In this document: positions 1,770-31,286 of the stretch, piece by piece
How the letters are laid out: every line of letters starts with the position of its first letter
Position numbering within the stretch: the stretch's first letter is position 1
DNA from: Candidatus Babelota bacterium
GTDB lineage: Bacteria; Babelota; Babeliae; Babelales; Babelaceae
Reading direction: 5' to 3'
Assembly: GCA_013821315.1 (NCBI GenBank)
Contig: JACDHA010000016.1
Span: 1-31,948, forward strand
Length of the DNA stretch: 31,948 bases
Notes under the pieces: model-generated
The model's database searches: none
What the model was told of the DNA's origin: nothing
Seen by the model: the letters and a program-made list of their open reading frames with translations, nothing else
Translations under genes and position numbers: made by a program

Positions 1770-3152
1770 ATGGTTTTAACAATGATCTCTCCTGCAATGC
1801 TGAGCATAATTGCTGCAGTTACTGGACTTTTAACGCTTGTGTTTGTAGCCTCTCGTTATAAACGTTGTCCCTCAAATAAAATACTTGCTGTTTTTGGTAA
1901 AGTGCAAGGCAACTCGTTTGTTCAATGTATTCATGGTGGCGGTGCCTTTGTATGGCCCTTAATTCAAGATTATGCTTTCTTAGATTTAACACCACGCACT
2001 ATACATATACCGCTTAAAAGTGCTTTGTCGTTACAGAATATTCGTATCAATGTGCCTAGTACGTTTACTATTGCTATTGATACTTCTCCTGAATGCATGA
2101 ATAATGCAGCTATACGCCTTCTTGGGCTAAGCAATCAAGAAATAGAGCTTATGGCAGTAGAGATTATTACTGGGCAAATGCGATTAACGGTAGCTTCATT
2201 AACTATTGAACAAATAAATCAAGACAGAGAAAGCTTTTTATCTGCTATTAAAAATCATATTGATCCAGAACTTAATAAAGTTGGTTTATCTCTTATAAAC
2301 GTAAATATTACTGATATTACCGATGAATCTCACTACATTGAAAGTATTGGTAAAAAAGCAGCTTCTCTAGCAGTAAACCAAGCTAAAATTGATGTAGCTG
2401 AAGCTGAGCGTCGTGGTGAAAGTGGAAGAGCAGATGCTGAAAAAGAGCGTCGTATTTCTGTTGCTACCTACAATGCCCAAGCAGTTGAAGGTGAAAATGA
2501 AGCACAAGCACGTATAGCTTCGTTTAATGCAGATTTAGCTCAAAAAAAAGCTGAATATACAACTAAAGCAGAAGTAGCCGAGCAGACTGCTTACGCACAT
2601 ATTCAACATGCTAAAGCTCAAGCTGAACTCAAGCGCTTAGAAGCTGAGCAAATTGTTCCTAAAGAAATTGAAAAGCGTAAAATTGCTATTGATGCTGAAG
2701 CTACAGCTGAAAAAATGCGTCGTGAAGCTATAGGCCAAGCAGAAGCTATCTTATCTATTAGAAATGCTGAAGCAGAAGGTATTCAAAAAACACTTGATGC
2801 AAAAGCTGAAGGCTATACGCGTTTAATTAAAGCGTGTGGTAACGATGCACAAGCGGCAGCTACCATGTTAATGGTTGAAAAACTTGAACAAATAGTCAGC
2901 CTGCAAACTGAAGCTATCAAAAATATAAAGATTGATAAAATAACGGTATGGGATAGTGGTTCTGGTGATAAAGGTAGCTCAACTGCTAATTTTATGAGCA
3001 ACATGGCAAAATCTTTGCCACCTCTTCATGAGGTTGCTGCTATGGCAGGTATTAATTTACCACAGTATTTAGGACAATTAAATCCTGAAACTAACACAGC
3101 AACAGCTAAAACAGAACACAAACAAGCTAAAAAAGAAAAAGAATTAGCGTAA
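1770..3152 (+). CDS. Flotillin-like SPFH/band-7 protein (YqiK/FloT type) with an N-terminal TM anchor and a Glu/Ala-rich coiled-coil tail.
   Basis: N-terminal hydrophobic helix, then an SPFH domain (KILAVFGKVQGNSFVQCIHGGGAFVWPLIQ...), then a long EA-repeat region (AEAERRGESGRADAEKERR..AQAELKRLEAEQ..) characteristic of bacterial flotillins. Confidence 0.8.
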   Translation: MVLTMISPAMLSIIAAVTGLLTLVFVASRYKRCPSNKILAVFGKVQGNSFVQCIHGGGAFVWPLIQDYAFLDLTPRTIHIPLKSALSLQNIRINVPSTFTIAIDTSPECMNNAAIRLLGLSNQEIELMAVEIITGQMRLTVASLTIEQINQDRESFLSAIKNHIDPELNKVGLSLINVNITDITDESHYIESIGKKAASLAVNQAKIDVAEAERRGESGRADAEKERRISVATYNAQAVEGENEAQARIASFNADLAQKKAEYTTKAEVAEQTAYAHIQHAKAQAELKRLEAEQIVPKEIEKRKIAIDAEATAEKMRREAIGQAEAILSIRNAEAEGIQKTLDAKAEGYTRLIKACGNDAQAAATMLMVEKLEQIVSLQTEAIKNIKIDKITVWDSGSGDKGSSTANFMSNMAKSLPPLHEVAAMAGINLPQYLGQLNPETNTATAKTEHKQAKKEKELA

Positions 3153-3167
3153 CTTTTCTAAAATAGT

Positions 3168-3211
3168 AAAAGATAAGAGCTTTTAGATAATTCTAAAAGC
3201 TCTTATCTTTT
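3168..3211. terminator. Bidirectional intrinsic terminator between the convergent flotillin gene and the J-domain gene.
   Basis: Perfect 17-bp inverted repeat aaaagataagagctttt / aaaagctcttatctttt with a 10-nt loop, flanked by A/T runs on both sides. Confidence 0.65.
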
Positions 3212-3226
3212 TGATTTTTTAGTCTA

Positions 3227-3943
3227 TTAGAGCCCCTTGAGCTTGTTAAAAGCATTAGTGATCATTTTAAATACAGCATCAGCTTGAGGGTTATTAAGAT
3301 TTTTATCTGGATGCCATTTAAGTCCCAAGGTTCTATATGCCTTGCTTATGTCAGCCTGGGATGCTTCTGGAGCAACATTAAGTATTTCTGCAGCAGAAGC
3401 GTCTTTGTAAAGGGCTAAGGCTTTTTGTGCGTCTTTAGGGTCAATTTGTGTTAAAGGTGTTCTTTTAATAACGGGTGCTAGTTTTCTGTAGTTTATTACT
3501 TTTGTGGTAATGTCGCTTTCTTTGACGTTGTTGCCTAGCGGGTAACCGCGCTCAGTTTTTCCTCTCAAGCCAAATAAAGGTCCTGATTGAGGGCCAAATA
3601 CTAATTTGTTATTTTCAGCTGTTGCGCGAACATAGATGGTTTTACCAGGTGTAAACTCATACAAATAAACTGATAGAGGTTTATTTATTTGAGGCTCTTG
3701 TAGAGAGAGTATAAGTTGGTTTTTTTTGTTTAAATCAAGAGTTGCGTAGGTATACTTGGTAGAATCGAGCTTAAGTAAATCGTAATTTTTAGCTTCATCT
3801 TTAGGGTTGATTGTCGATTTACCTAAACTATAATAAATAGGGGTACTAAGCTTATTCCAAAGTTCAAAATTAGCATCAGCTTTGCCTGAAGAGCTATAAA
3901 AAAATAAAAGTGCCGTAGTTACAAGTAAATGAGATAGCTTCAT
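3227..3943 (-). CDS. Protein with an N-terminal signal peptide or signal anchor and a C-terminal J-domain. It is either a DjlA-like membrane co-chaperone or an exported J-protein.
   Basis: C-terminal AAEILNVAPEASQADISKAYRTLGLKWHPDKNLNNPQADAVFKMITNAFNKL carries the invariant HPD tripeptide and the flanking helices II and III of a DnaJ domain. The N-terminus, MKLSHLLVTTALLFFYSSSGKADA|NF, has an h-region plus an A-x-A cleavage motif. The ~190-aa middle region has no recognisable homology. Confidence 0.75.
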   Translation of the reverse strand: MKLSHLLVTTALLFFYSSSGKADANFELWNKLSTPIYYSLGKSTINPKDEAKNYDLLKLDSTKYTYATLDLNKKNQLILSLQEPQINKPLSVYLYEFTPGKTIYVRATAENNKLVFGPQSGPLFGLRGKTERGYPLGNNVKESDITTKVINYRKLAPVIKRTPLTQIDPKDAQKALALYKDASAAEILNVAPEASQADISKAYRTLGLKWHPDKNLNNPQADAVFKMITNAFNKLKGL

Positions 3944-4061
3944 GATTTCTCCGTCAGTTTATGTTAAAATTATAAAAAGCTCTTTTGTTTTAAATATGAC
4001 AAATAGCATATGAATATGTCAATAATAAATAATAAGTTAACCCATATAACGAGAGACCTTT

Positions 4062-5381
4062 ATGCATAAAGATTTTAGTATAGTAAAAAAACGACGCCAA
4101 GAGTTACTGCATGCCCTTAAAAAAGAGCATCCAGACAAAAAAGGTATAGTGCTTCTTTTTGGCGCTTTTGAACAAGAACGGTACCGTTTTCGTCAAGAAA
4201 GTTCTTTTTACTATTTAACAAATATAGAAGAGCCAGGTATAGCACTTACATTAGAACTTGACGGCATGGCTCAGGTGTATATACCACAATACAGTGAGTC
4301 GCGAGCTAAATGGGTAGATTCTTTTCTGTTAAATGCGTCGGCTAATGTACTTGCAAACATGGGTATTGATAAGCTTGAGCCGCTTGGTGAAGCTTGCAAG
4401 GGGTATGCACTTTCAAGTAATTGTAATACAGCTGAGTATACTCATCTACTTAGTTTTATAAAAAAACAGATTGCCCAAGGCAATACTATTTTTACCCTTT
4501 ATTCAGGTGAAAATTATAAGGAGCAACGCTTAATTTTAAACAGCTTGTCCCTAGAATTGCCTGAACTTAAAAATAATGTAGTAGATATCAGTAGTATAGT
4601 TGCTAATATGCGCCGTACTAAAAATCAAGCTGAAATAGAGCTTTTATATGGGGCTATAGATTGTACTATGTCTGCTCATGAAGCGGCAGCGGTTATCATA
4701 GAAGCAGGTAAACAAGAATTTGAAATACAGGCAGGTCTTGAGTTTGTTTTTACGCAATCAGGAGCTCAACCCGCTTTTCCTTCGATAGTCGCTAGTGGTA
4801 AAAACGGTACTGTACTCCATTACACGCGTAATACAAGTACGCTTGCTAAAGGTGACTTGGTGGTTATAGACGCAGGTGCTGAGCTTGACTATTACTGCGG
4901 GGATATTACAAGAACCTATCCTATTTCGGGCACATTTACTAAAAGGCAACGAGAAGTCTATACTGTTGTGTTAGAAACGCAGCGTTATATAGAAGAATTG
5001 GCTAAGCCTGGTTTTTGGCTATCTAACAAAGAAAAGCCTGAAAAATCTTTGCACCACATAGCACAAGCTTTTCTAGAAAAGAAAGGGTATGGTAAGTACT
5101 TTACTCATGGACTAGGGCACTTTTTAGGTCTTGATGTGCATGATGTAGGAAGCTATACAGAGCCTCTTAAAGAAGGCGATGTGATAACCCTTGAACCCGG
5201 TATTTATATTCCTGAAGAAAGATTAGCTGTTCGTATTGAAGATAATTACTGGGTTGTTCAAGATGGCATTCTCTGTTTAAGCGAAGAACTTCCTAAAGAT
5301 ATAGAACTTGTGGAAGAAATGATGGTCGAATCTGATGATGAAGACTATGATTACGATGAAGATTATGATGACGAAAACTAA
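4062..5381 (+). CDS. pepP: Xaa-Pro aminopeptidase PepP (M24B family), ending in an acidic Asp/Tyr-rich tail.
   Basis: N-terminal creatinase-like domain plus a pita-bread catalytic domain with metal ligands (VLHYTRNT.., DLVVIDAGAELDYYCGDITRT, HGLGHFLGLDVHD, ITLEPGIY, RIEDN). The C-terminus is ESDDEDYDYDEDYDDEN. Confidence 0.85.
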   Translation: MHKDFSIVKKRRQELLHALKKEHPDKKGIVLLFGAFEQERYRFRQESSFYYLTNIEEPGIALTLELDGMAQVYIPQYSESRAKWVDSFLLNASANVLANMGIDKLEPLGEACKGYALSSNCNTAEYTHLLSFIKKQIAQGNTIFTLYSGENYKEQRLILNSLSLELPELKNNVVDISSIVANMRRTKNQAEIELLYGAIDCTMSAHEAAAVIIEAGKQEFEIQAGLEFVFTQSGAQPAFPSIVASGKNGTVLHYTRNTSTLAKGDLVVIDAGAELDYYCGDITRTYPISGTFTKRQREVYTVVLETQRYIEELAKPGFWLSNKEKPEKSLHHIAQAFLEKKGYGKYFTHGLGHFLGLDVHDVGSYTEPLKEGDVITLEPGIYIPEERLAVRIEDNYWVVQDGILCLSEELPKDIELVEEMMVESDDEDYDYDEDYDDEN

Positions 5382-5447: not shown

Positions 5448-7151
5448 TTAGTTACTAGCTTTGTTTCGTATATATAAAATTAATAAAGTAGTAGCTAATC
5501 CTGCAATAAAAGCACCAGTAACACTCAAGGTAGGACTATAACTACCAGTAAGTCCAACTATAAGCAAAGCTAAAGTTGTTCCTGCAATAGCAGGAGTAAC
5601 ATAGCCAAACTGTGTAGCAATATGATCAAGGTGATAAGCCCCTGAGCTTGTTGAAGACATTACCGTTGAGTCAGCTATAGGTGATACAGGCCCTCCTGCA
5701 ACTGCTCCTGAAAGTAACCCCCCCATAATGGGGCCCAGCAAAAAAGCTGATTGGGCATCAATTGGTAATGATTGTCCGGTAGCTGCCGTAATAATGGGCA
5801 CTGCAAGCGGCATCATAATCATTATTGTTCCCCAAGCAGAACCAATAGAGGCTGCAATAATAAGTGCGGTAAAAAAGATCATTACCGGTAATAAAAAGGT
5901 GGGAATTGCTCCCAAAACTAAATGAGCCACGTATTGACCGGCTTTTAGATCATCTTTAAGTAAGCTGCTAAGTGTCCAGGCAAGAAGCAAAATAAATAAA
6001 GAATTTTTCATAAGCATAAAGCCACTAACGCTTATATTTTTAAAATTATGCAAGGTTAATTTTTTTTGTAAGGCTGCTATAAGTAGTGTCAGGCTTAGAG
6101 TGATTACGCTTGCAAAACAGAGTGAAAAAAAGATATTTGCCTGTTGTAACGCAGTGCCAAAAGTAGCATTGCCGCCTAGCATATGCCAATTACCCGAATA
6201 CAGAAGAAGTGCAAATACCAAACCAATAAAAAGACCTATTGGCCCAAAAAAATCAATAAGAGAGCCTTTGTGGGCTGGATCTTGAGTTATTTGAACTACC
6301 AGCGGTTGTTTTCCGCCAAACAAGTTGCCCGTACGGTCGGCTTCATGCTCCTGTGCTTTCATACTGCCAAAAGAGATGGAACGTGCAACAATAAAAAATG
6401 CACTGGCAACTATAAAAAAGGGATAAAATAAATAAGCAATAGTATGTAGGTATACACTAAAAGGATCAGCTTTAATAAACGTTGTAAGGCCGGGTTGCTC
6501 AGAAACGCCTGCTGCTTGTAAGTTAACAAGTATCATTGCAGTCCAGCTAGAAGCAGGAATAATAACACATAAGGGTGCGCTCATGGCGTTAAGCAAAAAA
6601 GCTAATTTAACACGAGGTAGAGCAAACTTGTCCGTTAGGGGTCGCATAATACTTCCTACAACTAAACTGCTTAAATAATCATCAATAAAAAAGCACATTG
6701 AAAGAAGCAAGCATACAAACTGAGTTGCTTTTTTAGTATGTAATCTCCGTTGAAGCGTAGTAATATAGGCAGCAATGCCACCAGAATGGGTTATAAAAGA
6801 AATAATTATCCCGAGTGTTATTAAAAAAACAAATGTATAAAAATGATCAGGTGAACCTAAAGGACACCAAATCTTTTGTATATCTGTTTCTCTATAAAGA
6901 CGACAGACTATAAGCTCCACTGTTGCTACAGGAGAAAAAGAGGTAGCTAATGCTGCAGCACTAACAATGCCAGTTGCTAAAGATAAAAGAACGTTGCGCG
7001 ATATAAGAGCAACTATAAGAACTAACAGGGGTGGAAAAAGTACAAGCCATGCAGGCATAAAAACTCCATAAGTATAAGTTAAGAGTAGCGTAGTATTAGT
7101 GTGGCTTAATAAGCCAATTGTTGTAAATAGAAGGGTTAAAAAAGCTGTCAA
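5448..7151 (-). CDS. Polytopic membrane transporter, probably Na+/H+ antiporter NhaC family.
   Basis: 567 aa with about 12 or more hydrophobic helices. The GSAWGTIMIMMPLAVPI motif resembles the SWGT(x)M(L/I)PI signature I associate with the NhaC family. Family assignment is tentative. Confidence 0.45.
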   Translation of the reverse strand: MTAFLTLLFTTIGLLSHTNTTLLLTYTYGVFMPAWLVLFPPLLVLIVALISRNVLLSLATGIVSAAALATSFSPVATVELIVCRLYRETDIQKIWCPLGSPDHFYTFVFLITLGIIISFITHSGGIAAYITTLQRRLHTKKATQFVCLLLSMCFFIDDYLSSLVVGSIMRPLTDKFALPRVKLAFLLNAMSAPLCVIIPASSWTAMILVNLQAAGVSEQPGLTTFIKADPFSVYLHTIAYLFYPFFIVASAFFIVARSISFGSMKAQEHEADRTGNLFGGKQPLVVQITQDPAHKGSLIDFFGPIGLFIGLVFALLLYSGNWHMLGGNATFGTALQQANIFFSLCFASVITLSLTLLIAALQKKLTLHNFKNISVSGFMLMKNSLFILLLAWTLSSLLKDDLKAGQYVAHLVLGAIPTFLLPVMIFFTALIIAASIGSAWGTIMIMMPLAVPIITAATGQSLPIDAQSAFLLGPIMGGLLSGAVAGGPVSPIADSTVMSSTSSGAYHLDHIATQFGYVTPAIAGTTLALLIVGLTGSYSPTLSVTGAFIAGLATTLLILYIRNKASN

Positions 7152-7466: not shown

Positions 7467-7904
7467 ATGGCTGATATGAATAAAGCATACTTCTTGCGTA
7501 AAGAAGATCAGAGCCCTCGCTGGCGCGTTATCGATGCACAAGATCAAATTGTGGGTCGTTTAGCAACTCAAATAGCAGATGCTCTTCGTGGTAAAGATAG
7601 AGCTAACTATACACCGCACAGTGATGCTGGTGACTACGTTGTAGTACTTAATGCTAAAGGTCTTAAGTTAAGTGGCAATAAAATGGACCAAAAGATCTAT
7701 GAAACCTATAGTGGTTGGATCGGTAACAAAAAATATATCACTGCTAAGCAAAAAATGGCAAAAAACCCAGCTGAAATTATTGAACTAGCTGTTAAAGGTA
7801 TGTTGCCAAAAACCAAGCTTGCACGTCAACTTCTTAGAAAGTTACGTGTGTATGTAGGTGCTGAGCATCCTCATGCAGCTCAAATTGCAGGATTTGCTGA
7901 GTAA
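7467..7904 (+). CDS. rplM: 50S ribosomal protein L13.
   Basis: MADMNKAYFLRKEDQSPRWRVIDAQDQIVGRLATQIADALRGK...NYTPHSDAGDYVVVLNA is the canonical L13 N-terminus. Confidence 0.95.
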   Translation: MADMNKAYFLRKEDQSPRWRVIDAQDQIVGRLATQIADALRGKDRANYTPHSDAGDYVVVLNAKGLKLSGNKMDQKIYETYSGWIGNKKYITAKQKMAKNPAEIIELAVKGMLPKTKLARQLLRKLRVYVGAEHPHAAQIAGFAE

Positions 7905-7935
7905 TTCTTAAATCCAGAGCAAGTGCAAAGTTATA

Positions 7936-7967
7936 AAAAAAAAGCCGCTTTTAAAAGCGGCTTTTTT
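7936..7967. terminator. Bidirectional intrinsic terminator between the convergent rplM and rseP genes.
   Basis: aaaaaaaaGCCGCttttaaaaGCGGCtttttt, a perfect palindrome with a GC stem flanked by an A-run and a T-run. Confidence 0.65.
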
Positions 7968-7989
7968 GCATATCAAGTATTAACTATTT

Positions 7990-9102
7990 TTAAAAACCAA
8001 GAAGAGTAAATATGTCTCGGTAAGTCAGGTAGACAACAAGTGCCATTACAAGCAACCACGTAGCATAGTGGATTTTATAACGAGTCTCATCTTTTAATGG
8101 TTTACCTATAAGAGCTTCAATGGTAAAGAATAATGCTTGACCACCGTCAAATATAGGTAATGGCAACATATTAAATACCGCTAAGTTTATACTAATAAAT
8201 GCAAGCATAAATAAGCATACTTTATAGCCCCCTTTAACGCAGCTTGTTACTTGAGCTATCAGCATAAGTGGACCACCAAGACTTGCTTGTGCTTTTTTAA
8301 AGCCTTTAAAGATACCAAACAGCTCTTTAATCATATTCCACGTGGTTTGCCAGCCTTCAGAAAGCGCTTGGCTTAAAGAAACTGCAGGTGTATGCCAATA
8401 AACACCAAGTAGCGGTGTTGCTGCCTTATTGGCAATAGGGGCTGCAAGTTCTAGGGTAAGTGTTTGTTTTACGCCGTTACGTTCAATTTCTACTGGTGTT
8501 TGCTTGCCCATAAGCGGAGTAAGTTTTTCCGTTACTTGCTCTATAGTAGTTACTGGTTGATTATTAATGCTGATTATTTTATCATAAGGCTTAAAACCTG
8601 CTTTAGCTGCAGGCAAATTTTCTGCTACAGTATCAATAAAAGGAGCTCTTGTTTTACAAGTAGAGCCAACACAAGGTCCACCAACATAAAATAAAAAGCT
8701 TAATGCGGCGTAAGCAAATACTAAATTAAATAAAATGCCGCCAAACATAATAAGCATTTTTTGCCAGTAAGGCTTTTGATTAAAAGAGCGCTCGTCAGTA
8801 CTGTTAGCATATGCTTGTTCTCCTTGACCAACTTCTGCTGATCCAGCCATTTCTACATAACCACCTAAAGGAATAGCTGATATAACAAAGTCTGTGTCCC
8901 AGATTCGCTTTTTAAATAAGCGAGGGCCAAATCCAATAGAAAACGAAGGAGTATGAACGCCAAATAGTTTAGCAAAGATAAAATGTCCTAATTCATGAAA
9001 AAATATAAGAAAACAGACGCCCAAAAGCGCTATAATAATTGAAGGCAAATTGTAAATAAGCATAAGTAAATCCATCGGGCATTCTCCTTGATAATTTGAC
9101 AA
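7990..9102 (-). CDS. rseP: RIP zinc metalloprotease RseP (site-2 protease). The true start is probably the internal Met of MDLLMLIY (about 9075).
   Basis: HELGHFIFAKLFG HExxH motif in TM1, a central PDZ-like region, and the C-terminal LAVFNMLPLPIFDGG (LDG) motif. Confidence 0.85.
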   Translation of the reverse strand: MSNYQGECPMDLLMLIYNLPSIIIALLGVCFLIFFHELGHFIFAKLFGVHTPSFSIGFGPRLFKKRIWDTDFVISAIPLGGYVEMAGSAEVGQGEQAYANSTDERSFNQKPYWQKMLIMFGGILFNLVFAYAALSFLFYVGGPCVGSTCKTRAPFIDTVAENLPAAKAGFKPYDKIISINNQPVTTIEQVTEKLTPLMGKQTPVEIERNGVKQTLTLELAAPIANKAATPLLGVYWHTPAVSLSQALSEGWQTTWNMIKELFGIFKGFKKAQASLGGPLMLIAQVTSCVKGGYKVCLFMLAFISINLAVFNMLPLPIFDGGQALFFTIEALIGKPLKDETRYKIHYATWLLVMALVVYLTYRDIFTLLGF

Positions 9103-9183
9103 ATAAGATATTTTATGTTTTACTGCAATGATAACTTACCCAGTCTAATAATGCAAGTATATTTTCCGCTTTATTCTTTTCAC

Positions 9184-9211
9184 TTGAAAAAATCAACAAA
9201 AAAGTTATACT
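9184..9211 (+). promoter_or_regulatory. Candidate promoter in the long leader upstream of rpsL.
   Basis: TTGAAA (9184-9189), a 16-nt spacer, then TATACT (9206-9211), about 290 nt upstream of rpsL. Sequence pattern only. Confidence 0.3.
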
Positions 9212-29133: not shown

Positions 29134-30600
29134 ATGTATAAATCAACTAAAGCATATATTGCTCTAGCTTTATTTTCTTTAGCATTACCGCAAGCTCAGC
29201 TTAGTGGGATGCAATCTAATTCCAATAGCGCAGTATCACATAATGCTTTAAAGAAAAGATATGACTTTTTAGAGTCTGAAGCTCAAAAGAATTCTGATCA
29301 GGTAATGAGTCTAATAGTGACCAAACAATCTCTTAAACAAGCACAAGCTTTAGGTGCAAAAAGTGCAACTGATCAAAAACTGAATAAGATTAATGAAGAA
29401 ATAGCACAACAGCTGAGTACCGGTAAGCGCATCTTAGAAAATTTAGATTATACTGCCGAAACCCTTAAAAAGACACCTGTTACAATAAATGATCAACTGC
29501 AAGAAAGAAGAGCTCAATGGATTGCCAGGCAACCCCTACAGAGCGATAGTTTTGAAGATCTTTTTAAAGCTTCCGATGCTCAACATTCTGCTGCAGTGAG
29601 TACAATAGGGCATGATTTAAGAGCGGTTGGTAATGATCTAAAAGCAATTCAAAGTAAAGTAATAGAGCAACAGCAACAAGCAAATACGCGAAGGCAAGAG
29701 CTCTTGCAGCAGTCTAGGCAGGATCTTGATAGCTTACACGCTCTTATTGCAACACCTGCACGTATACAACCTCAGTCTAGTGTGCTGAATGTTCAAGCAG
29801 CTGCACAACGAGCACTTCCGCAGATTAACTCTATTGATGTTGTTGAGCCATTAAGAAACGTGCTTAGTGAAGCACAACAGCAACTTCAAGCCGCTCCTAG
29901 TGAAATTCAACCGAATTTACCTCTAGTTAGAGCTGGTCGCTTATTAGCTGACGAAGCAGATGATGAAGATAACAACGGGCTATTAGCACTTCAAAAAATT
30001 CAGTATCTAGGAAATTATATAAAAGATACTGTTAATGAGCATCGCTATATAACTGCAGGAGTAGCAGTAGGTGTAGGTGCAGGAGCTTTATATGCCTTTA
30101 ATAAGCCTGTACGAGAAAAATGTAATAAAACGGCACGACAAGCTAAAGACAAAGTAAAGGCTACTTGGCAGGAGCTACAAGAGACTAAAGTTACAGCAAA
30201 AGGTGCTGCTGGATTATTAAGCCTTGCAGCTATTATTGCTTTTACAAATGCTCATCGCGATGTAGTAGCTACTTCTACAGCAAGTGCTTATAACTATGTA
30301 ACGAATAATAAAAAAGCTAGTTTAGCTACGTTAGCTACTGGAGCAGCGCTAGCTGGTTTACTTAGGTATGCTTTTTATAGAAAAGATCTAGTAGATGCTA
30401 CGCGTGCTAAGCATAAGTTAATACAAACTACCATGGCTAAATTTATCGATTCTTTAACGTTACCTCAGTGGGCATACTCAGGCATAGATAAGGTAATTAC
30501 AAGAGCTTACTATACTCCTGAAATTTTAAAAGCGAACACAGATTTGTGGAGTGCGCTTTCTGAAGATCAAAAAGCTTTAATTAATCAGTTAAATAATTAA
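29134..30600 (+). CDS. Hypothetical secreted or membrane protein (488 aa). It has a signal peptide, a long Gln-rich predicted coiled-coil region, and three C-terminal Ala/Gly-rich hydrophobic helices.
   Basis: MYKSTKAYIALALFSLALPQAQLSG signal-like N-terminus. About 280 aa of heptad-like Q/E/K-rich sequence (IEQQQQANTRRQELLQQSRQDL...). Then ITAGVAVGVGAGALYAF, KGAAGLLSLAAIIAFTNA and LATLATGAALAGLLRYAFY. No homology I recognise. Confidence 0.6.
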   Translation: MYKSTKAYIALALFSLALPQAQLSGMQSNSNSAVSHNALKKRYDFLESEAQKNSDQVMSLIVTKQSLKQAQALGAKSATDQKLNKINEEIAQQLSTGKRILENLDYTAETLKKTPVTINDQLQERRAQWIARQPLQSDSFEDLFKASDAQHSAAVSTIGHDLRAVGNDLKAIQSKVIEQQQQANTRRQELLQQSRQDLDSLHALIATPARIQPQSSVLNVQAAAQRALPQINSIDVVEPLRNVLSEAQQQLQAAPSEIQPNLPLVRAGRLLADEADDEDNNGLLALQKIQYLGNYIKDTVNEHRYITAGVAVGVGAGALYAFNKPVREKCNKTARQAKDKVKATWQELQETKVTAKGAAGLLSLAAIIAFTNAHRDVVATSTASAYNYVTNNKKASLATLATGAALAGLLRYAFYRKDLVDATRAKHKLIQTTMAKFIDSLTLPQWAYSGIDKVITRAYYTPEILKANTDLWSALSEDQKALINQLNN

Positions 30601-30634: not shown

Positions 30635-30937
30635 ATGACTCAAAAGAAAATGTTTTTTAGTATTGTTTTAAGTTTAGCGTTTCTTAGTAATAACTGTGCT
30701 CAAGCAGCAGATCTTACAACGAGCAAAGCAGCTTTTTATGTAAAGAAAATGTGTGCTAATCTTAAAGCAACTACGTATAGTGGTTTAAGTAAAACAAAAG
30801 CTTTATTGTATAGAGGTAAAACTAAAGTTGCTCAACCAGGTGATTACATAATTACTCGTGGTATGGCTGTTAAAACCGTGGTAGCTGCTGGTGCACTCTA
30901 TGGTATAGCACGAGGTCTTCAAAAGCTTAGAAAATAG
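30635..30937 (+). CDS. Hypothetical small basic secreted protein (100 aa), member of the local family.
   Basis: Signal peptide MTQKKMFFSIVLSLAFLSNNCAQA|AD. The C-terminus, VVAAGALYGIARGLQKLRK, carries the shared A-G-x-L-Y-G + basic module. Confidence 0.55.
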   Translation: MTQKKMFFSIVLSLAFLSNNCAQAADLTTSKAAFYVKKMCANLKATTYSGLSKTKALLYRGKTKVAQPGDYIITRGMAVKTVVAAGALYGIARGLQKLRK

Positions 30938-31011: not shown

Positions 31012-31066
31012 TACTTAAGGATTGTATGAATAAAACCAATAAAAAATTAGTTATAGCATTAAGTGT
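31012..31066 (+). repeat. Direct repeat, copy 1 (5'-UTR/RBS plus signal-peptide coding module); copy 2 lies at 31339-31393.
   Basis: tacttaagg(a/g)ttgtatgaataaaa(c/g)caataaaaaatta(g/a)ttatagcattaag shows about 52 of 55 identical nt between the two loci, then diverges. Confidence 0.8.
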
Positions 31067-31286
31067 AGTAGGTCTTCTAAGCATGCCAATAAACATGCGT
31101 GCTCATGGTTTTTCTGCTCTGTCTTCTAAGTTTAATTCTAAGCTTAGCTCTAGTACAGTTTTTTTTATTATGCTAGGCAGCTATATAACTTATAAGCTGT
31201 ATAAACGTTATCAAACAACTCAAGAACAAGAAATTGAAGAACAAGAAATTCAAGAGCAGCAAGAATTAGCTGTAGAAAACGAATAA
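31026..31286 (+). CDS. Hypothetical small signal-peptide membrane protein (86 aa) with a Q/E-repeat tail, paralogous at its 5' end to the next gene.
   Basis: MNKTNKKLVIALSVVGLLSMPINMRA|HG signal, then TVFFIMLGSYITYKLYKRY, then EQEIEEQEIQEQQELAVENE. Confidence 0.5.
   Translation: MNKTNKKLVIALSVVGLLSMPINMRAHGFSALSSKFNSKLSSSTVFFIMLGSYITYKLYKRYQTTQEQEIEEQEIQEQQELAVENE

Follow-up and report, generated by a model that had tools for sequence, protein, structure and literature searches.

The stretch of DNA analysed here, referred to below as the window, comprises 31,948 nucleotides of a contig from Candidatus Babelota bacterium (JACDHA010000016.1, assembly GCA_013821315.1) and represents a segment of a bacterial chromosome with a G+C content of 37.7%. 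Its minus strand carries a gene for a J-domain protein of 238 amino acids, identical to a sequence deposited in NCBI as a J domain-containing protein of a Candidatus Dependentiae bacterium (contig JAITZQ011007521.1, 80.7 kb). The protein is built of a predicted Sec-type signal peptide, a beta-sandwich domain, a linker and a C-terminal J-domain (Table 1). What would be new about it is the combination of a Sec signal and a novel beta-sandwich partner domain in a J-domain protein that is a putative effector. On balance, and with slightly more than even confidence, we read it as a co-chaperone mimic exported through Sec and the type II secretion system (T2SS) and aimed at an Hsp70 of the host, the export as such being well supported and very probable.

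Table 1. Features of the J-domain protein gene, of its product and of the flanking DNA (positions in the window)
Feature	Position	Strand	Basis
J-domain protein gene, 238 codons + stop	3227..3943	-	list of open reading frames and sequence; ATG start
Shine-Dalgarno sequence GGAG	3949..3952	-	sequence reading; ATG 5 nt downstream
Sigma-70-like promoter candidate, TTGACA / 18 nt / TG-CATATT	3993..4022	-	consensus scan, 10/12 matches; pattern match only
Bidirectional intrinsic-terminator hairpin, perfect 20-bp stem	3168..3211	.	terminator scan, both strands
Sec-type signal peptide (predicted), residues 1-24	3872..3943	-	hydropathy and charge compared with anchors in the window; family pattern
Beta-sandwich domain (predicted), residues 25-154	3482..3871	-	motifs NFELWNK, TIYVR, GPQ(T/S)GP..G..GKTERGY, NNV
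Linker, residues 155-183, one predicted helix 169-178	3395..3481	-	AlphaFold2 secondary structure
Minimal J-domain, residues 184-238, helices I-III	3230..3394	-	Pfam, PDB matches, superposition, homologue alignment
HPD codons His211-Pro212-Asp213	3305..3313	-	reverse complement CAT CCA GAT, read directly

In regard to the C-terminal part, residues 186-235 match Pfam DnaJ PF00226 (E=7.9e-15; 55.2 bits, gathering cutoff 27.8), the alignment extending over positions 4-53 of the 63 in the profile, and the sequence KWHPDKN occupies residues 209-215. In the AlphaFold2 model the J-domain is formed by helices 184-187, 196-210 and 219-236, the last two being connected by the loop with the His-Pro-Asp (HPD) motif, which stimulates the ATPase of Hsp70. 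This part of the model superposes on solved J-domains at 0.7-1.9 Å, including the J-domain of DnaJ bound to DnaK (5nro_B; 0.9 Å over 52 residues), and its sequence matches in the PDB are DNAJB8, DNAJB6, DNAJC5 and E. coli DnaJ. Taken as profile match and superposition together, the agreement is far beyond chance, and by profile score and HPD motif the protein can be classed as a member of PF00226. A preceding reading of the letters alone (hereafter the sequence-only reading) had noted a canonical J-domain with HPD in KWHPDKN at the C-terminus of a protein of this length, and this description was borne out. A chaperone of the DnaJ/CbpA type (class A/B) was rejected as a candidate, because the J-domain is C-terminal, the NCBIfam models of DnaJ and CbpA align with the J part only (22-42 bits against cutoffs of 338-619), and the Pfam scan of the protein returned no matches to PF00684 and PF01556, domains of class A/B DnaJ proteins.

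At the opposite end of the protein, residues 1-24 (MKLSHLLVTTALLFFYSSSGKADA) are followed by N25, from which the sequence continues as NFELW. They contain an n-region (MK), an h-region (LLVTTALLFFY) and a c-region (SSSGKADA), with cleavage predicted at A-D-A/N (24/25), where A22-D23-A24/N25 conforms to the -3/-1 rule. The apolar run covers 15 residues (6-20), about 11 of them strongly hydrophobic, which corresponds to an h-region of 11-15 amino acids (about residues 6-16 to 6-20) and agrees with the Sec-like signal, cleaved at A-D-A/N after a 15-residue h-region, that had been proposed beforehand. K2 is located ahead of the h-region, and the flank after it (K21, D23, E27) is net-acidic. A lipobox and a Tat motif were looked for in the N-terminus, which has no Cys and no RR. 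In the AlphaFold2 model residues 1-22 are disordered, and the predicted local distance difference test (pLDDT) score falls below 50 at residues 1-3 and 11-17. Judged heuristically, by hydropathy, charge and family conservation, the N-terminus has the tripartite organization of a Sec signal peptide of the type I signal peptidase class.

An alternative to export, also raised in the sequence-only reading, is a DjlA-like protein with an uncleaved N-terminal anchor and a cytoplasmic J-domain recruiting DnaK to the inner membrane. The order of an N-terminal hydrophobic segment and a C-terminal J-domain is indeed that of DjlA, and a weak NCBIfam DjlA match was recorded (E=1.5e-4), but PRK09430 reaches just 21.4 bits where its cutoff would require 162, and its aligned part is restricted to residues 182-222, i.e. 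to the J-domain. Moreover, in length and strength the hydrophobic stretch appears insufficient to form a transmembrane helix, as its maximum 19-residue Kyte-Doolittle hydropathy is 1.03, compared to 2.43 and 2.38 in two N-terminal anchors that the window also encodes, those of the flotillin-like protein and of RseP. Because the positive charge is on the N-terminal side and the flank after the h-region is net-acidic, an N-in/C-out orientation would be predicted even for an uncleaved segment, and that of DjlA is the reverse. Likewise, no TerB match was found in Pfam at E≤1, residues 25-154 are predicted to form a beta-sandwich, and in 132 of the 145 evaluable relatives described below a classical signal peptide stands ahead of the homologous domain. 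The protein lacks three of the four features that define DjlA, and orthology with it was rejected, so that a DjlA-like anchor, as an explanation of the architecture, has become extremely unlikely.

The domain released by the predicted cleavage has no match in Pfam, NCBIfam or PDB sequences. AlphaFold2, used with the family alignment, modelled the whole protein with a mean pLDDT of 91.5 and placed the beta-sandwich at residues 26-154, while the isolated domain (residues 25-154) reached 95.8. It had been described earlier as a middle domain unrelated to DjlA; the unrelatedness holds, given the beta-sandwich and the missing TerB match, and its position has to be corrected, as in the mature protein this domain comes first, at the N-terminus. 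Residues N30, K31, P118, Q119, G121, G125 and N139 are nearly invariant in the family, and as no obvious catalytic set is present among them, the domain would be a binding or targeting module.

The distribution of this domain was followed with a profile (A1) built from five sequences, one of them the window protein, which itself matches A1 with 196 bits over profile positions 1-128. While the first protein search had provided four relatives of residues 25-150 with differing C-termini (Cys-rich tails in two, a Pro-rich coiled-coil in one and a J-domain without HPD in one), the search of 1.84 billion cluster representatives with A1 retrieved at least 365 proteins at E≤1e-3, 89 of which at E≤1e-10. 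The family is new in the sense of being uncatalogued: it comprises several hundred sequence clusters and is missing from Pfam and NCBIfam. Its N-termini are uniform, with MKK... followed by a hydrophobic run, a small-x-small motif and (P)NFELWNK. Among 145 evaluable members, a net-positive n-region is present in 135, an h-region of 7-20 amino acids in 137 and a -3/-1 site in 139, with all three in 132, and 13 members are lipoprotein-like. In members with a near-full-length match the domain starts at median residue 27, and no more than 25 residues follow it in 82 of 129. As far as can be judged from these sequences, the family consists mostly of small, single-domain, exported proteins.

Since signal peptide features directly precede the domain in 132 of the 145 members, an extracytoplasmic location of the beta-sandwich can be regarded as a family trait, and among the lines of evidence for the signal peptide this behaviour of the family is the strongest. 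Export of the J-domain protein is further favoured because its phylum is obligately intracellular and rich in eukaryote-like proteins bearing signal peptides, and because relatives within the family also carry ankyrin, leucine-rich repeat (LRR) and cPLA2-like domains. Three paralogues of the beta-sandwich were observed on a single 1.42-Mb contig, beside ankyrin genes. One member of 166 amino acids (P0159) is labelled in NCBI as 'Candidatus Bathyarchaeia archaeon', and its 3.6-kb contig is probably mis-binned rather than indicative of an archaeal occurrence. The scan of viral contigs with A1 detected no relatives and hence gave no indication that the family is shared with giant viruses.

Fusions of the beta-sandwich with other domains form a minor part of the family. 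Among members of up to 320 amino acids (n=133), Pfam DnaJ was found in 15, LRR in one and ankyrin repeats in one. A separate scan identified 13 J-fused members, all of them with the J-domain at the C-terminus (13/13) and 11 with a preserved HPD motif. J-fused proteins thus make up about 10% of the family, and about 90% are exported without any J-domain. Outside this size range, a metagenomic protein of 745 amino acids (P0023) combines the beta-sandwich (residues 99-212) with a cPLA2-like lysophospholipase (PF01735, E=6.6e-28), and its sequence suggests a secreted lipase sharing the same N-terminal module. The DnaJ, LRR, ankyrin and cPLA2-like fusion partners are typical eukaryote-directed modules.

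With respect to the fusion with the J-domain, the HPD motif retained in 11 of 13 sequences argues for selection on the engagement of Hsp70. The opposite explanation would be a decaying or neutral fusion, in which the J-domain has no function. Two proteins with a C-terminal J-like domain, P0004 (228 amino acids, WNPLTN) and P0148 (246 amino acids, WDPVKN), have lost the HPD and could possibly represent pseudo-J-domains or decaying fusions, and the missing helix IV could also be understood in this way. However, the architecture has been kept across homologues of just 31-47% identity with HPD intact in most of them, the open reading frame in the window is intact and accompanied by a Shine-Dalgarno sequence, a promoter-like site and a terminator, and the AlphaFold2 model is highly confident. 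We therefore consider loss of function highly unlikely for the protein studied here.

It is also conceivable that the J-domain acts in cis before export, by drawing the DnaK of the bacterium itself to the pre-protein and keeping the beta-sandwich unfolded until it reaches Sec, after which it would be carried along as a passenger. The J-domain is made and translocated last, it is nearest to bacterial DnaJ sequences, and DnaK/DnaJ are generally known to be able to assist Sec export in E. coli, all of which would suit such an export aid. On the other hand, roughly nine tenths of the family are exported with no J-domain at all, and the transport through Sec would be impeded rather than helped by a bundle of three helices that folds stably. 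In addition, in the Dependentiae loci L034 and L064 the J-domain comes straight after the signal peptide and could not linger in the cytoplasm. An export aid acting in cis is accordingly very unlikely in our opinion.

The reading that we prefer, a co-chaperone mimic directed at host Hsp70, could proceed as follows. The cleavable signal peptide (residues 1-24) would direct the protein to SecYEG, as suggested by sequence and family evidence, and the mature protein would begin at about N25, where the beta-sandwich starts. Following export, it would reach a compartment of the host, and the C-terminal J-domain, with its intact HPD loop, would dock on ATP-bound host Hsp70, as expected from the biochemistry of J-domains. 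The partner could be Hsc70 of the cytosol or else BiP, the latter provided that the vacuole of the bacterium is connected to the endoplasmic reticulum (ER). By triggering ATP hydrolysis, the J-domain would clamp the host chaperone on whatever the beta-sandwich binds or adjoins. The beta-sandwich would in this manner do the targeting or bind the client, with the J-domain as its 'warhead', the corresponding warhead in sister proteins being ankyrin repeats, LRR or a cPLA2-like domain, or none. All the steps beyond the inner membrane, as well as the identity of the Hsp70 partner, are what we infer from these comparisons.

Such a route would be in line with the biology described for the phylum. The Dependentiae (TM6) live as obligate parasites inside the cells of protists. 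For Chromulinavorax destructans, signal peptides on 44% of coding sequences, those of most ankyrin proteins among them, as well as outer-membrane vesicles were reported (PMC6561590). In Babela the type II system was the only secretion system detected, and type III secretion systems (T3SS) were reported lacking in Dependentiae (PMC4378268), while T2SS components, including two gspD genes, belong to the core of the TM6 phylum (PMC4776705). Secretion of the signal-peptide-bearing eukaryote-like proteins into the host via Sec and T2SS has been proposed for Dependentiae (PMC4378268; PMC6561590).

A protein exported across the inner membrane could alternatively remain in the periplasm or on the surface, with the J-domain serving as an interaction module or working with an Hsp70-like protein that is exported as well; in a bacterium surrounded by host cytosol, ATP could enter the periplasm via porins. 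However, a periplasmic Hsp70 is not known from any bacterium, and the loci inspected here showed none. The HPD motif of 11 of the 13 fusions would be difficult to account for if no Hsp70 partner existed, and the ankyrin, LRR and cPLA2-like sister fusions point to eukaryotic targets. Residence in the envelope is for these reasons rather unlikely, and a mimic acting on host Hsp70 is the most economical explanation, because no periplasmic partner of J-domains is known, the HPD is conserved and eukaryote-directed modules are found in the sister proteins. Of the earlier proposal that the protein is exported to meet a eukaryotic host Hsp70, the export part has held up (signals in 132 of 145 relatives, biology of the phylum, fusions), and the contact with Hsp70 is the part that we infer.

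Several observations weigh against the co-chaperone mimic. The protein stops after helix III of the J-domain and has no helix IV, a truncation shared by all the J-fused homologues, and in an alignment with a DnaJ sequence of E. coli, Ser and Thr appear to occupy the positions of the helix-II basic residues Arg22 and Arg27. The sequences nearest to the J-domain are of the bacterial DnaJ type, with identities up to 60% compared to 48% for the best human match, DNAJB8. A eukaryotic origin of the J-domain is consequently not supported, and nothing in its sequence marks it as tuned to a eukaryotic Hsp70. The call of the signal peptide is based on heuristics and family conservation, and taxonomy was established for only a minority of the beta-sandwich family members. 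The mimic would moreover have to cross the outer membrane and possibly a vacuolar membrane of the host, for which a translocation mechanism is not known; Babela grows inside a vacuole. Finally, the mimic reading names neither a particular host nor a ligand of the beta-sandwich.

A broader, and distinctly unlikely, possibility is that the beta-sandwich is a modular delivery or targeting domain of Dependentiae-type parasites, which binds a host membrane or host factor after passage through Sec and T2SS and is equipped with interchangeable C-terminal warheads. If true, the warheads would be brought up to the vacuolar membrane of the host or even through it, and this would explain how a phylum with T2SS only gets effectors to host targets. 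Proteins combining a signal peptide and a J-domain would then be widespread, unrecognised Hsp70-hijacking effectors of protist endosymbionts.

Other presumably exported J-domain proteins were encountered when the full-length protein was searched against genome contigs, where the matches were mostly restricted to the J-domain. The closest full-length homologue, with 36% identity, is located at L001, in the Dependentiae metagenome-assembled genome (MAG) E44_bin52. Just downstream of this J-fused orthologue lies a second beta-sandwich copy without J-domain (8703-9206, +), a paralogue in tandem that is truncated where the contig stops. On the same contig, two genes (1530-2243, -; 4721-5368, -) encode proteins in which a signal peptide is followed by a different N-domain and, at the C-terminus, by a J-domain, and the two genes are interleaved with four paralogues of a signal-peptide-bearing family of about 330 amino acids, three of which have near-identical C-termini (427-1467, 2437-3432, 3704-4666, 5664-6668). 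The whole segment 427-6668 looks like an effector-type island. At L064 (Babeliales; 5724-6542, + and 7902-8768, +), two paralogues have the J-domain straight after the signal peptide, and the same order was observed in a small protein at L034 (Dependentiae NORP98; 7551-7985, +). By sequence, there are several architectures of exported J-domains in Dependentiae. A protein with signal peptide, ankyrin repeats and J-domain was also found (P0007). Outside Dependentiae, the MAG UBA6184 of an endosymbiont from Paracaedibacteraceae encodes a 343-amino-acid protein (L008; 7119-8147, +) in which a lipobox-like signal (…FIVSC) is combined with a J-domain at the C-terminus (LKWHPDKNLGNPEAE), so the architecture of signal and C-terminal J-domain may recur in alphaproteobacteria.

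Considering the genomic surroundings, the hairpin downstream of the J-domain gene has T-runs at either side and serves both this gene and the convergent gene of the flotillin-like SPFH protein. Since this bidirectional terminator separates them, the J-domain gene is expected to be monocistronic. Its neighbours differ at each of the compared loci, with no operon partner and no adjoining T2SS or Hsp70 gene, as expected for stand-alone accessory genes. Besides the flotillin-like gene, the window encodes yidC, recR, pepP, an NhaC-type antiporter, rplM and rseP, as well as the str/S10/spc/alpha ribosomal operons including secY, adk and map, and rpoA, so that the Sec components SecY and YidC are among its products. 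The PepP-like M24 aminopeptidase (4062-5381, +) ends with an unusual acidic tail of Asp, Glu and Tyr (ESDDEDYDYDEDYDDEN). Past rpoA, rplQ and a NifU-like gene, three successive open reading frames (29134-30600, 30635-30937 and 31026-31286, all +) code for proteins of 488, 100 and 86 amino acids, whose N-termini are all signal-peptide-like, which fits the signal-peptide-rich proteome reported for Dependentiae. The 488-amino-acid protein is rich in Q and resembles a coiled coil, hydrophobic segments being present near its C-terminal third, and the Pfam scan of this and of the 100-amino-acid protein gave no matches.

Bacterial J-domain proteins are, to our knowledge, nearly always partners of cytoplasmic DnaK. 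A recurrent association of signal peptide, targeting domain and J-domain would extend the hijacking of Hsp70 to Sec/T2SS-secreted proteins of protist parasites. It also sharpens the question of how eukaryote-like proteins bearing signal peptides get to host targets without type III, IV and VI secretion systems. Our literature search found no paper naming both Dependentiae and 'J domain', and none on a translocated J-domain effector of Legionella.

Among known systems, DjlA, the inner-membrane co-chaperone of E. coli, shares the C-terminal J-domain and the N-terminal hydrophobic segment with the window protein, but it has a true transmembrane anchor, a cytoplasmic J-domain and an all-alpha, TerB-like centre in place of the signal peptide and beta-sandwich. 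In the eukaryotic ERdj family, the association of signal peptide and J-domain is sensible because BiP and ATP are present on the far side of the membrane, and the J-domain of ERdj5 superposes on our model at 0.7 Å. These proteins are, however, eukaryotic and have other partner domains, and their relevance, a speculative one, is confined to the case of an ER-derived bacterial vacuole with BiP as the target.

Secreted J-domain proteins of eukaryotic parasites offer another comparison. The exported Hsp40s of Plasmodium falciparum (e.g. PFA0660w, whose J-domain superposes on the model at 1.3 Å) and the secreted DnaJ candidates of plant-parasitic nematodes (PMC6802931) likewise combine an export signal with a J-domain that acts on chaperones of the host. 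They differ in being exported through the ER or by way of the Plasmodium export element (PEXEL), and many are full class II Hsp40s with glycine/phenylalanine-rich and client-binding domains, which are absent from the window protein. Within the phylum itself, DnaJ-domain proteins beyond the housekeeping set were noted in Babela massiliensis, and ankyrin proteins with signal peptides in Dependentiae (PMC4378268; PMC6561590). The three DnaJ-domain proteins specific to Babela were read as an unexplained chaperone excess, tentatively tied to cell division (PMC4378268), rather than as secreted effectors, and their likeness to the window protein is one of description only. The co-chaperone mimic proposed here would give this 'excess' of DnaJ-domain proteins a testable function.

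The established precedent for a bacterial effector engaging host Hsp70 with a C-terminal J-domain is HopI1 of Pseudomonas syringae, the only bacterial J-domain effector among those retrieved. Membership of the window protein in the HopI1 family was rejected, as it has a Sec signal instead of a type III signal and no proline/glutamine (P/Q) repeats, and T3SS is reported to be lacking in Dependentiae (PMC4378268). HopI1 is injected into plants by type III secretion and contains P/Q-rich repeats, whereas the window protein has a Sec signal, a beta-sandwich and a truncated J-domain and belongs to a phylum reported to have T2SS only. The likeness between the two is thus functional and drawn from descriptions in the literature, with delivery of the window protein to the host being presumed: in both cases a protein would act outside the bacterium, where the HPD-containing J-domain at its C-terminus would recruit the Hsp70 of the host and the N-terminal region without J-domain would set the site of action.

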